A stretch of DNA of 64,000 bases from Stutzerimonas stutzeri. Its GTDB lineage: Bacteria > Pseudomonadota > Gammaproteobacteria > Pseudomonadales > Pseudomonadaceae. Positions 28,705 through 39,941 of this stretch are shown piece after piece. Numbering within the stretch: position 1 is the first letter of the stretch; each line of letters begins with the position of its first letter. The position numbers were made by a program, and so were the translations under genes. Where the stretch lies: contig NZ_CP139348.1 in assembly GCF_038561965.1 (NCBI RefSeq), positions 1,546,340-1,610,339 on the forward strand, written 5' to 3'. The notes under the pieces were generated by a model. That model was not told the origin of the DNA. It did not search any database and was given only the letters and a program-made list of their open reading frames with translations.

Positions 28705-28861
28705 AAAGCTCGTTCGTCGCCTTGACGAATTTCAGCCGCGTGCTGTGGTTGGCGGCGGCGTGTAACGGCTTGAGCGACAATGTTCGAAGCTTTCGTCGCG
28801 CTTCTCTGTGTGCCGTGACTCGGCTCCGCGTCACGTTTCTAGAAAATTACATGTGAGCTTG

Positions 28862-28889
28862 TTGCGCTTATCACATGTGCTGATATTCT
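28862..28889 (+). promoter_or_regulatory. putative promoter of the DUF2170/PspA/flotillin cluster with flanking palindromes
   Basis: -35 ttgcgc (28862-28867), 16-nt spacer, extended -10 TGaTATTCT (28881-28889). Palindrome CACATGTG at 28873-28880, related acatgtg at 28849-28855, and a further inverted repeat cgtgac(N10)gtcacg at 28814-28835. Confidence 0.4.
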
Positions 28890-28895
28890 GGCGGC

Positions 28896-29516
28896 ATGGA
28901 AACGAAATCGTCCGCACATTATCAGCGCCTTTTTCGGCAGCGCCTGCGTGATCAGGGGTTGGTGAAAAAGGAAGTCTGGATTTTGCCCGAGCATTCAGTA
29001 CGGCTTGCGGCCTTGGAGAAGAGAATGCGCCAGCCGCTTCAGGGGCTGGCTTCATGTGAGATGGAAGAAGGTATGAATATGCCGCAGCTATGGACCGCCC
29101 AAGCGTTGCATGACGCTATTGAAACCACGGAACTGTGTAAGAACGGTCAGATTGCAATCGAGCTGATCCAAGGGGCTGACGCCAGCCTGCGCGTCACGAT
29201 GCGCGAGTATGGCGACCTGCCGATCTATGTGGCAGTGGTCGGCGAGCAAATCATCGTCGAGGCGCTGCTTTGGCCGGTTTCTGATGTGCAGGATCCGACC
29301 GCATTCAATGAACAGATATTGCGCACTCACAAGCTGTTTCCACTTTCGTGCATCGGCATCGAGTCGCTTCCAGATGGCCAGCCTTGCTACACCATGTTCG
29401 GTGCATTGAGTTCGGCGTCCACGCTTTCGGATGTGGTGCTGGAGATCCAGTTGCTTGGCGATAACGTGATCAAGGCTACCGAGGCGTACGAAGGCTTTCT
29501 CAAGGCCGGCATTTGA
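28896..29516 (+). CDS. DUF2170 (YjfI-like) family protein; N-terminal extent uncertain
   Basis: The C-terminal ~145 aa resemble YjfI, the E. coli gene partnered with yjfJ. The longest ORF starts at an ATG at 28896 with no RBS, right at the predicted transcription start. In-frame ATGs at 29061, 29073 and 29079 are alternative starts, and GC3 is lower upstream of them. Confidence 0.6.
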   Translation: METKSSAHYQRLFRQRLRDQGLVKKEVWILPEHSVRLAALEKRMRQPLQGLASCEMEEGMNMPQLWTAQALHDAIETTELCKNGQIAIELIQGADASLRVTMREYGDLPIYVAVVGEQIIVEALLWPVSDVQDPTAFNEQILRTHKLFPLSCIGIESLPDGQPCYTMFGALSSASTLSDVVLEIQLLGDNVIKATEAYEGFLKAGI

Positions 29517-38691: not shown

Positions 38692-39233
38692 AGCGAGCGC
38701 TCGGTGAGCTGCGCTTGCTGGCCGTGCTGGCCGGCAGCCTGGTGCTTGTGCAGCTCGCTAACAGCTTTACCGGCGGTGCGCTGAACGTATGGGGGTTAGT
38801 GCCGCGTCAGGTGCAGGCCCTACCTGGCATCCTGATCGCGCCCTGGCTGCACGGCGGCTGGGCGCACCTTCTAAGCAATCTCAGTGGGCTCATGATTCTC
38901 GGGTCACTGGTGTTGCTGCGCTCCCAGAGTGATTTCGTTCTGGCAAGCATTTTCATCATCGTTGGCAGCGGCGGGTTGGTGTGGTGCTTTGGTCGAACCG
39001 GCGTGCACATCGGCGCTAGTGGCTGGCTGTTTGGTTTCTGGGGGCTATTGCTGGCACGTGCCTGGATCGACCGTAGCCTGCTTGACCTGTTGCTGGCGGG
39101 GCTGGTGTTCATTTTCTACGGCGGTTGGCTGTTCGGGCTATTACCGCGTGACGGGGTTTCCTTCGAATACCATTTGGCCGGTGCGTCGTGCGGTGTGCTT
39201 TACGCTGTGCTGTCGCGTAGTCGGCGACTCTGA
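38688..39233 (+). CDS. rhomboid family intramembrane serine protease
   Basis: The GTG start overlaps the giant gene's stop (GTGA). Six transmembrane segments with an HxxxN motif (WAHLLSN), catalytic GASG (HIGASGWLFG) and a catalytic His in the last helix (EYHLAGASCG). Confidence 0.8.
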   Translation: MKRALGELRLLAVLAGSLVLVQLANSFTGGALNVWGLVPRQVQALPGILIAPWLHGGWAHLLSNLSGLMILGSLVLLRSQSDFVLASIFIIVGSGGLVWCFGRTGVHIGASGWLFGFWGLLLARAWIDRSLLDLLLAGLVFIFYGGWLFGLLPRDGVSFEYHLAGASCGVLYAVLSRSRRL

Positions 39234-39248
39234 CAAAAAGGATTTTGT

Positions 39249-39941
39249 GTGGATTTCAATCGACTCGACCAACAATTGCGCGACAGCTTGGCCGATCTGC
39301 GCCTGAGCAATGAAGAGCGCGACGAGTTGCGCCAGCTGGGCAGCGAGCTGACAGTTGACCAGATACGCTTCCTGCGTAATCGGGCTTTTGCCTTGGTCCG
39401 CGAGCTCAGTCGTGAGCCCGCGAACATCGAGCCTGCGCTTAAATGGCTGGAGCAGGTGATCAAGACGCTCGATGCCTGCTCCACGCCAGTCAGGACAGAG
39501 CAGGCCAGCGCACATTTCAGTCCGGGCGAAAGCTGCCGTCGCAAGATCCGCGATCTCTGCCGGCAGGCGCGCAAGAGCGTGGATATCTGTGTTTACACAA
39601 TTTCCGATGATCAGCTCAGTGAGGAGATTCTGGCCTGCCACCAACGTGGCGTAACTGTGCGGGTGATCAGCGACAACGAGAAACAGTATGACGCGGGCAG
39701 CGACATCCAGTGGCTGCGCGATAAGGGCGTGCCGCTGCGTATCGACTCTGGCCCCTACCACATGCATCACAAGTTCGCCCTGTTCGACGGGCGCTTACTA
39801 CTCAACGGCAGCTTCAACTGGACCCGTAGCGCGACCACCAGCAATGAGGAAAATCTGCTGGTGATCGATCACCCACAATTGCTGGCCGATTACGCGCGCG
39901 AATTCGAGAGCCTTTGGGCGCGTTATGCGGATAATTGTTGA
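39249..39941 (+). CDS. phospholipase D-family protein with a single HKD motif
   Basis: HxKxxxxD...N motif HMHHKFALFDG...NGSFNWT in the C-terminal ~130 aa, with a ~100-aa helical N-terminal domain. GTG start 6 nt after an aaaaagga RBS, 15 nt after the rhomboid gene. Confidence 0.8.
   Translation: MDFNRLDQQLRDSLADLRLSNEERDELRQLGSELTVDQIRFLRNRAFALVRELSREPANIEPALKWLEQVIKTLDACSTPVRTEQASAHFSPGESCRRKIRDLCRQARKSVDICVYTISDDQLSEEILACHQRGVTVRVISDNEKQYDAGSDIQWLRDKGVPLRIDSGPYHMHHKFALFDGRLLLNGSFNWTRSATTSNEENLLVIDHPQLLADYAREFESLWARYADNC

Follow-up and report, generated by a model that had tools for sequence, protein, structure and literature searches.

An extended, eight-gene version of the Pseudomonas bac operon in Stutzerimonas stutzeri

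The stretch of Stutzerimonas stutzeri DNA considered here (64,000 nucleotides of contig NZ_CP139348.1, positions 1,546,340 to 1,610,339, referred to below as the window) encodes a cluster of eight genes, g1 to g8 (Table 1), which we read from its sequence and from its relatives as a real operon and as an extended version of the bac operon of Pseudomonas. The bac "biofilm-associated cluster" of P. aeruginosa, as defined by Mace et al. 2008 and Wallart et al. 2024, affects biofilm, rhamnolipid and virulence in that species and responds to phage infection, and its six genes (PA14_16140-16200) were found by reverse-transcription PCR to make up the operon bacABCDEF (Wallart et al. 2024, PMC10948618). 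The system has therefore already been described and the cluster is an eight-gene variant of it, in fact its fullest version, rather than a new kind of system; the new elements are the added rhomboid protease, the small protein that resembles TerB, and evidence for g1 as a possible DNA-binding autorepressor. PspA/IM30 and the flotillins are of ancient origin and serve in membrane maintenance; little is understood of their partners in bacteria other than E. coli, or of how they are regulated there. We consider it probable that the cluster, an orthologue of bacABCDEF with two genes added, is a chromosomal, autoregulated and stress-inducible inner-membrane module, and a role of this kind in membrane stress and remodelling is better supported than phage defence, DNA repair or chance adjacency.

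The six genes that the cluster shares with P. aeruginosa bacABCDEF (PA3732-PA3727, or PA14_16140-16200) are orthologous to it and follow the same order, g1-g2-g3-g4-g6-g8. A link to bac, which the initial annotation of this DNA had suggested, is borne out by the match of g1 to the NCBIfam BacA equivalog NF050185 (333.3 bits against a cut-off of 300, over residues 1-204 of 206) and by the 77% identity of g6 to the P. aeruginosa protein. The same gene order recurs in P. paraeruginosa, together with the same paired ACATGT operators and promoter. The giant ATPase is taken to be BacE and the phospholipase D (PLD)-family enzyme, by position, to be BacF, because PA14_16190 has been named an "ATPase involved in DNA repair" (PMC8855297) and because of the gene order in P. 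paraeruginosa. Two genes present here are missing from P. aeruginosa bac, namely the TerB-like gene between the flotillin and ATPase genes and the rhomboid gene between the ATPase and PLD genes, and these two are the only additions to the described system. The linkage of ATPase, rhomboid and PLD had been thought undescribed, which proves incorrect for the ATPase and PLD, since these are BacE and BacF and are co-transcribed with bacA-D (PMC10948618). A broader operon class is outlined in the relevant passages of Ravi et al. 2024 in mSystems (PMC11237479), where CesT/Tir-PspA, a band-7/flotillin protein, a novel AAA+ ATPase and YqiJ are combined, with an HKD hydrolase "in some Proteobacteria". 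The components are the same as here, the HKD hydrolase being optional, and the more widespread, abbreviated flotillin-YqiJ-ATPase core of that class is confirmed by the locus counts given below; the paper contains no mention of a rhomboid, and the same passages do not describe the TerB-like protein, the N-terminal domain of BacA or the operators.

The gene content and the co-directional arrangement of the eight genes on the + strand agree with the initial annotation, and the open reading frame (ORF) listing places them at 28896-39941; the start that had been given, 28810, does not coincide with a gene start, and 28810-28895 is the promoter and operator region. Successive gaps from g1 to g8 are 19, 76, 27, 72, 104, -4 and 15 nt. 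Both of the tight junctions that had been pointed out can be read directly in the sequence: the GTGA overlap of g6 and g7, with the GTG at 38688 overlapping the TGA at 38689-38691, and the 15-nt gap between g7 and g8 (39234-39248), which contains AAGGA. There are no terminator-like signals on the + strand in any intergenic gap of the cluster (terminator-like sites in total number 14, within the shuffled expectation of 10.4 +/- 3.2), and an Rfam scan of 28300-40200 returned no RNA family.

Table 1. Genes and regulatory features of the S. stutzeri bac-type cluster (positions in the window)
Feature	Position	Strand	Description
Operator box 1	28847-28856	+	TTACATGTGA, palindromic core ACATGT; just upstream of -35
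Sigma-70-like promoter	28862-28889	+	-35 TTGCGC (28862-28867), 16-nt spacer, -10 TATTCT (28884-28889)
Operator box 2	28871-28880	+	TCACATGTGC; within promoter spacer, 24 bp from box 1
g1	28896-29516	+	bacA orthologue, DUF2170
g2	29536-30231	+	bacB orthologue, PspA/IM30 (YjfJ type)
g3	30308-30952	+	bacC orthologue, polytopic membrane protein, YqiJ/DUF1449-like
g4	30980-33022	+	bacD orthologue, flotillin/SPFH, YqiK-like
g5	33095-33340	+	Small acidic TerB-like protein
g6	33445-38691	+	bacE orthologue, 1748-aa ATPase
g7	38688-39233	+	Minimal-core rhomboid intramembrane serine protease, 181 aa
g8	39249-39941	+	bacF orthologue, single-HKD PLD-family enzyme

Conservation of the cluster was followed through an ATPase-centred scan with one genome per species, which yielded 585 confirmed matches; the best 80 were kept and searched with profiles of all eight proteins, and the gene counts given here are for the 63 species loci among these 80 that had enough flanking sequence. 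Genes g3, g4 and g6 are present in 63/63 loci, g1 and g2 together in 48, g8 in 29, g7 in 24 and g5 in 22, and all eight genes are present in 11. The counts show that the universal core consists of the YqiJ-like protein, the flotillin and the giant MoxR-type AAA+ ATPase, and that the DUF2170-PspA pair, the TerB-like protein, the rhomboid and the PLD are optional add-ons. Only g3-g4-g6 are kept in Stenotrophomonas; the five-gene core (CesT/Tir, PspA, DUF1449, flotillin and ATPase) extends to Hymenobacter, of the Bacteroidota, and a flotillin-ATPase pair occurs in Streptomyces. The linkage is far beyond chance, as the arrangement recurs in dozens of species, and the chance adjacency without co-conservation that the initial annotation had allowed for is not what we found. 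Its picture of an eight-gene unit stands in part: the eight genes are co-conserved in a portion of the family and are not an obligate set. Among minor variants, a metagenome locus (L145) has a complete bac operon followed by another DUF2170-PspA pair (about 12480-13600), and in two loci (L030 and L077) the main flotillin gene has a second flotillin-like ORF match beside it.

With respect to regulation, the published bac model has a sigma-54 promoter and a BacA of 146 aa that resembles a chaperone, whereas the BacA encoded here is of 206 aa with a putative DNA-binding domain at its N-terminus. A sigma-54 promoter for g1 was rejected because a scan of the 260 nt upstream found no GG-N10-GC site; the best sigma-54-like match nearby, which is within the coding region, agrees at 6/11 positions, as does the best one in the P. 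paraeruginosa locus. We find instead a sigma-70-like promoter that a consensus promoter scan had missed, its -35 element matching at just 3/6 positions. In an alignment of 19 upstream regions from the Pseudomonas lineage, the TTG, the 16-17 nt spacer and TAnnCT are conserved. The -10 element ends 6 nt ahead of the ATG, and from this spacing the g1 mRNA would be leaderless or nearly so. The 9-mer TYACATGTG occurs twice in the window, at boxes 1 and 2. Across loci, TYACATGTRA is present in two copies at a distance of 23-24 bp, around or in a TTG-16/17-TAnnCT promoter, and 6-9 nt separate the -10 element of this promoter from the ATG; the pair upstream of g1 is kept in about 70 loci, and throughout 170 fetched loci the 10-mer is found almost exclusively upstream of g1.

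The candidate reader of these boxes is the N-terminal domain of BacA. The g1 protein consists of a conserved N-domain (residues 1-48), a variable linker and a DUF2170 / CesT-Tir-like chaperone domain (residues 66-202), of which the last matches Pfam DUF2170 above the gathering score (E=1.4e-51). The crystal structure of BacA (PDB 8q8o, E=1.6e-50) aligns with residues 64-204 only, and the N-domain is outside the region covered by it. This domain is kept in all bac-type loci, from Pseudomonas to Gilliamella and Lampropedia, and is among the best-conserved parts of the system. The MazE-like family PF11455 is weakly matched by 20/30 BacA members (best E=0.0011), and a PDB profile search with the N-domain gave no significant match. 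Homologues of the domain also exist as standalone proteins of 46-70 aa beside integrases and Tn3 resolvases, that is, in mobile-element contexts. Five such loci (L171-L175) carry standalone homologues of 57-66 aa in small-gene clusters by a phage integrase or a Tn3 transposase/resolvase, one of them near a PLDc_2-SNF2 helicase fusion.

Boxes and N-domain change together. Lysobacteraceae with a divergent N-domain have TTTCATGTAA/TTACATGAAA in place of TYACATGTRA, and paralogous yjf-type operons (L081-L083 and L121-L163) have the TCACGCGTGA box just twice, at a spacing of 46 bp and immediately upstream of a long DUF2170 gene, this 10-mer being found nowhere else within each 10-20 kb locus; this pair may be a paralogous operator for a paralogous regulator. 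E. coli YjfI, which is 38% identical to g1, has neither N-domain nor boxes. Because of this co-variation the evidence points to autoregulation by BacA, which fits the proteome of a bacA mutant, in which BacB-F are raised 6-13-fold, and the reported interaction of BacA with BacB (both PMC10948618). If true, this operator and the candidate repressor domain would take the place of the sigma-54 model and account for the mutant proteome.

The product of g2 matches PspA_IM30 (PF04012) above the Pfam gathering score (179.8 bits, E=7.8e-53) and is 36% identical to E. coli YjfJ over its full length (E=2e-34). It is of the YjfJ type; identity with classical pspA was rejected on a TIGR02977 equivalog score of 16.6 bits against a cut-off of 243. 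The membrane partner encoded by g3 has about three transmembrane helices (hydropathy peaks at residues 13-31, 72-90 and 109-127) and a soluble, beta-rich C-terminal domain. The earlier description of this protein as "NfeD-like" is weak: topology, position and the matches of 8/23 g3 orthologues to YqiJ_N (best E=6.5e-5) fit a YqiJ-family protein, NfeD itself being matched by 1/23 (E=0.28), whereas pairwise comparison with E. coli YqiJ shows no similarity. The positional orthologue in Hymenobacter is annotated as DUF1449, like E. coli YqiJ, and PDB sequence and profile searches with g3 gave no match. The g4 protein, with an N-terminal transmembrane helix (residues 9-27), an SPFH domain and a long Glu/Ala-rich coiled coil, had no Pfam match at full length, its N-terminal 273 aa matched Band_7 below the cut-off (E=7.5e-4), and PDB sequence and profile searches with the N-region found no match; that it is a flotillin, as had been proposed, is confirmed by homology to E. 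coli YqiK (BLASTP, 28% identity over 453 aa, E=1e-39). PA14_16180, at the BacD position, is PaFlo3 (PMC13086221). The small g5 protein of 79-81 aa, whose true start is likely the ATG at 33101, has a pI of 4.5, two conserved DG-x-(L/I)D-x-x-E motifs and weak matches to TerB (E=0.014) and EF-hand_7 (E=0.028). It is found only alongside g1-g2 and is not fixed in place: some loci have it between g2 and g3 or between g4 and g6, others upstream of g1 or following g6 or g8.

The relationship to the E. coli yjfI-yjfJ and yqiK genes that the initial annotation had suggested thus holds (38%, 36% and 28% identity, respectively). As in E. coli yqiJK and in SPFH-NfeD operon pairs, a membrane partner gene lies ahead of the flotillin gene; in E. 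coli, however, the two units, yjfIJKLMC and yqiJK, are apart, no giant ATPase lies beside yqiK, YjfI has no N-domain and YqiJ is not detectably like g3. The cluster also resembles the E. coli Psp system (PspF-PspABCDE) in its PspA/IM30 effector, its induction by phage and envelope stress and, probably, a regulator that partners PspA, and it differs in having no PspF-type activator (Sigma54_activat), PspB or PspC detectable by Pfam among the eight genes, and no sigma-54 promoter.

The giant ATPase g6 is predicted to be soluble, with no transmembrane helix in a hydropathy scan, and matches DUF3686 (1e-206), DUF7902 and AAA_5 (28.1 bits against 22) above the Pfam gathering scores; no paper on DUF3686 was found. 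An AlphaFold2 model of residues 1-1000 (pLDDT 76) has an N-terminal helix, a beta-propeller at about 59-419 (DUF3686), a long alpha-helical region of about 430 residues (425-857, including DUF7902) and a small beta domain (872-904). A helical domain follows at about 908-1240, of which residues 1001-1240 are modelled confidently, and then the AAA+ module at about 1285-1440, with Walker A SPPGYGKT at 1296-1303 and Walker B MLYVDD at 1360-1365, and a helical or low-confidence C-terminal tail. The AAA+ core is modelled poorly (pLDDT 30-60). Walker A, Walker B and GNPYTE...PDMLANRAD, the NP-x-E sensor region, are invariant in the ATPase alignment, and in our reading these motifs follow the MoxR pattern, which fits the AAA_5 match and the weak fold matches to NorQ and CbbQ. 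Foldseek matches of the C-terminal part (NorQ, CbbQ, MCM and BchI) are weak, those to NorQ, CbbQ and MCM, at E>=0.01, being only suggestive, and PDB sequence and profile searches gave either no matches or matches to the P-loop only. Matches of the N-terminal part to Elp1, Nup155, clathrin, IFT-A, Vps18 and prolyl oligopeptidase, with template-modelling scores of about 0.1, are generic propeller or solenoid matches, and kinship with coat proteins is not claimed. The von Willebrand A (VWA)-domain partner of MoxR-type proteins was found neither among the eight genes nor in the flanks. A likeness to ESCRT-III and Vps4 may also be drawn, in that PspA/IM30 belongs to the ESCRT-III superfamily (cited in PMC10948618) and the operon has a dedicated ATPase gene of its own; unlike Vps4, g6 is not a classical-clade AAA protein, its PF00004 match is to the P-loop only, its best folds are NorQ, CbbQ and MCM, and no MIT domain was detected.

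Gene g7 encodes a rhomboid (PF01694, 66.2 bits against a cut-off of 22.6) with an intact Ser-His dyad and HxxxN motif, H60, N64, G109-A-S111-G and H162 being invariant in the rhomboid alignment, and an identical protein is on record from "Pseudomonas stutzeri". Rhombosortase identity was rejected on a TIGR03902 score of 26.6 bits (cut-off 84), and a GlyGly-CTERM context was not observed. The gene nearly always follows g6 directly and in one locus lies divergently upstream of g1; the g6-g7 order is found in Pseudomonas-lineage genera, Cellvibrio, Hahella, Arenicella, Limnobaculum and Xenorhabdus, and an NTGA overlap of the two genes is kept in most Pseudomonas-lineage loci. A rhomboid-centred scan of metagenomes gave 80 loci, about 40 with the ATPase gene directly upstream and about 28 with DUF2170-PspA directly upstream, lacking flotillin and ATPase. 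The latter arrangement is exemplified by P. synxantha, whose rhomboid (48% identical to g7) is encoded in DUF2170-PspA-rhomboid-K+ channel-DUF2491-DUF350-DUF1190-GSP synthase, a yjfIJKLMC-type operon. Both PspA operon classes are fused into one co-directional array on pQBR103, a P. fluorescens SBW25 megaplasmid (NC_009444.1, 84392-105596), in the order YjfI-PspA-rhomboid-DUF2491-DUF350-DUF1190-GSP synthase-YqiJ-like-SPFH-giant ATPase; an ACATGT-type box lies upstream of the YjfI gene of this array. One rhomboid subfamily is accordingly embedded in both the bac and the yjfIJKLMC types of DUF2170-PspA operon. As far as can be told this is new, a literature search combining rhomboid, PspA, flotillin and bacteria having found no paper, and a rhomboid subfamily dedicated to PspA operons is of interest since few bacterial rhomboids have a known physiological context. 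In one further locus (L084, 9662-16535) the rhomboid gene is directly followed by a gene for a 1084-aa AAA_11/AAA_12 (Upf1-like) helicase, with a DUF2201_N protein and a small MoxR-type AAA ATPase encoded nearby.

The g8 protein is predicted to be cytoplasmic, with a helical N-terminal extension of approximately 90 aa, no transmembrane helix in a hydropathy scan, and a PLDc_2 domain (105.4 bits) in which the HxK(x)4D motif reads HHKFALFD (residues 173-180). Its best solved relatives are mitochondrial cardiolipin hydrolase (MitoPLD/Zucchini, E=2.9e-28), Nuc (3e-14) and NucT (3e-7). Identity with DrmC, DpdK or NucT was rejected (36.5 against 133, 23.8 against 100 and 47.5 against 211 bits, respectively).

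In the mechanism that we propose, the N-terminal MazE-like domain of BacA would occupy the two TYACATGTRA boxes and keep the operon repressed, and its C-terminal CesT-like domain would hold the PspA-like BacB. Membrane damage, such as that inflicted by phage lysis proteins or loss of the proton-motive force, would draw BacB to the bilayer, change the partnership and bring about derepression, a partner switch functionally like that of PspA and PspF that would be built from different parts. BacB polymers would seal or remodel the damaged bilayer; the flotillin and its YqiJ/NfeD-like partner would form an SPFH cage enclosing a microdomain of lipid and protein; and the giant ATPase, for which the propeller and solenoid would provide a platform and the AAA+ ring the motor, would assemble, remodel or dismantle these polymers. 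The rhomboid may cleave a transmembrane client within this domain, for which the flotillin N-terminal helix and the YqiJ-like protein are candidates, and the MitoPLD-like enzyme may convert cardiolipin or phosphatidylglycerol into phosphatidic acid and so change curvature, which could link the action of PspA and flotillin to cardiolipin turnover. The membrane-stress interpretation of the initial annotation is in this respect sound.

Several points weigh against such a module. The biochemical roles of all eight proteins, including BacA repression, partner switching, the clients of the ATPase and the substrates of the rhomboid and PLD, are ones that we infer, and the rhomboid substrate is a guess. 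With regard to regulation, the match of the BacA N-domain to PF11455 is below threshold, leaving DNA binding putative; Wallart et al. (PMC10948618) propose a sigma-54 promoter, contrary to the promoter read here; the bacA mutant is a transposon insertion, so that higher downstream expression could be read-through rather than lost repression; and some factor other than BacA could bind the boxes. The AAA+ core of g6 is of low model confidence, and profile searches found no solved relative that reaches E=0.01. PA14 without the flotillin loses just about 20% of its biofilm, and none of the nine SPFH genes is essential in laboratory conditions (PMC13086221). About 11/80 rhomboid loci are orphans in unrelated contexts, where the neighbours (AraC, CoA-transferase, Rce1-like, HemA and MAPEG) provide no pointer to a substrate. 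Lastly, MitoPLD/Zucchini and Nuc are also nucleases, and g8 may act on either type of substrate.

A more ambitious proposal, which we regard as possible though doubtful, is that the "long" DUF2170 proteins of BacA type make up a hitherto unrecognised class of one-component stress regulator and, jointly, that the machine under their control is a bacterial equivalent of the mitochondrial SLP2-PARL-YME1L hub together with MitoPLD. On the regulator side, a MazE-like domain would act on paired operators (TCAC-AT-GTGA in bac and TCAC-GC-GTGA in yjf operons) and a CesT-like domain would read free versus membrane-bound cognate PspA; the machine would be a flotillin cage around the rhomboid, serviced by the giant AAA+ remodeller and a cardiolipin-hydrolysing PLD. 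The hub, named "SPY", likewise brings an SPFH scaffold, a rhomboid and an AAA+ protein into one membrane domain, as cited from Wai et al. 2016 in PMC7966987. It differs from the cluster, where the AAA+ protein is MoxR-like and has no protease domain, the rhomboid is a minimal one of six transmembrane helices and not PARL-type, and the complex is a putative one. The likeness to the hub and to MitoPLD is one of analogy, not membership.

Anti-phage defence or abortive infection, with the membrane module sensing, the ATPase transducing and a PLD nuclease, with the rhomboid, as effector, strikes us as unlikely. PA3728-PA3732 were induced in all phage-infected samples of P. aeruginosa (ISME J 2025, PMC12041424), a response equally expected of a phage-shock-type stress system. 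The g8 protein is weakly similar to the DrmC, DpdK and Mokosh-associated PLD domains and counts nucleases among its closest solved relatives, but its DrmC and DpdK scores are far under the cut-offs, no other DISARM or Dpd genes occur among the eight genes or in the flanks, and a PADLOC 2.0 scan of the eight proteins gave coiled-coil noise or sub-threshold PLD matches only. A large helicase beside the rhomboid in one locus could also be taken as a hint of defence. Against it, the flanks are housekeeping genes (rdgC, an FKBP isomerase, bacterioferritin (bfr) and bfd upstream, YaeQ and Nramp downstream); homologues of g6 occur in 0/50,697 phage records and in only 13/72,556 plasmid records, of which most are megaplasmids or chromids; the operon, with operators of its own, is conserved by vertical descent across genera; and the PLD is missing from more than half of the loci, Stenotrophomonas having the three-gene core only. 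The dedicated defence role that had been raised as a possibility for the cluster finds little support.

That g7 and g8 are unrelated passengers downstream of a six-gene operon (g1-g6) in this lineage is very improbable. Both are indeed missing from many loci and some members of the rhomboid subfamily are orphans, but the 4-nt overlap with the ATPase gene and the rhomboid-after-ATPase order are conserved as described above, about 68/80 rhomboid-centred metagenome loci lie within a bac-type or yjf-type PspA operon, and the PLD gene is co-transcribed in PA14 (PMC10948618). Hardly credible at all is a function in DNA repair or nucleic-acid processing with the PLD as a Nuc-type nuclease, suggested by the names "DNA repair ATPase" and "ATPase involved in DNA repair" in source annotations and by the Pfam description of DUF3686, by weak P-loop matches of g6 to RuvB, by the similarity of g8 to Nuc and NucT and by rdgC 2.6 kb upstream, since the RuvB matches are limited to about 45 P-loop residues, no nucleic-acid-binding domain was detected in g6 (by Pfam, the AlphaFold2 model or Foldseek), the invariant partners of g6 are two membrane proteins, none of the papers found lends the name experimental support, and rdgC is on the opposite strand with three other genes between.

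Some minor features of the region may be recorded. The bac promoter shares a 245-nt intergenic region with that of the divergent bfd gene, which has a sigma-70-like promoter of good match, TTGACA-17-TAGCAT (28678-28706, - strand), and bfd is separated from the bacterioferritin gene by a strong terminator-like hairpin (28391-28409, - strand). About 30 nt upstream of box 1 there is an inverted repeat, CGTGAC-N10-GTCACG (28814-28835), which is not conserved in the aligned Pseudomonas loci. A convergent TPR gene terminates 22 nt past g8. An ORF of 662 aa on the - strand (36433-38421), antisense to the giant ATPase gene and without supporting evidence, most likely results from the high G+C content.

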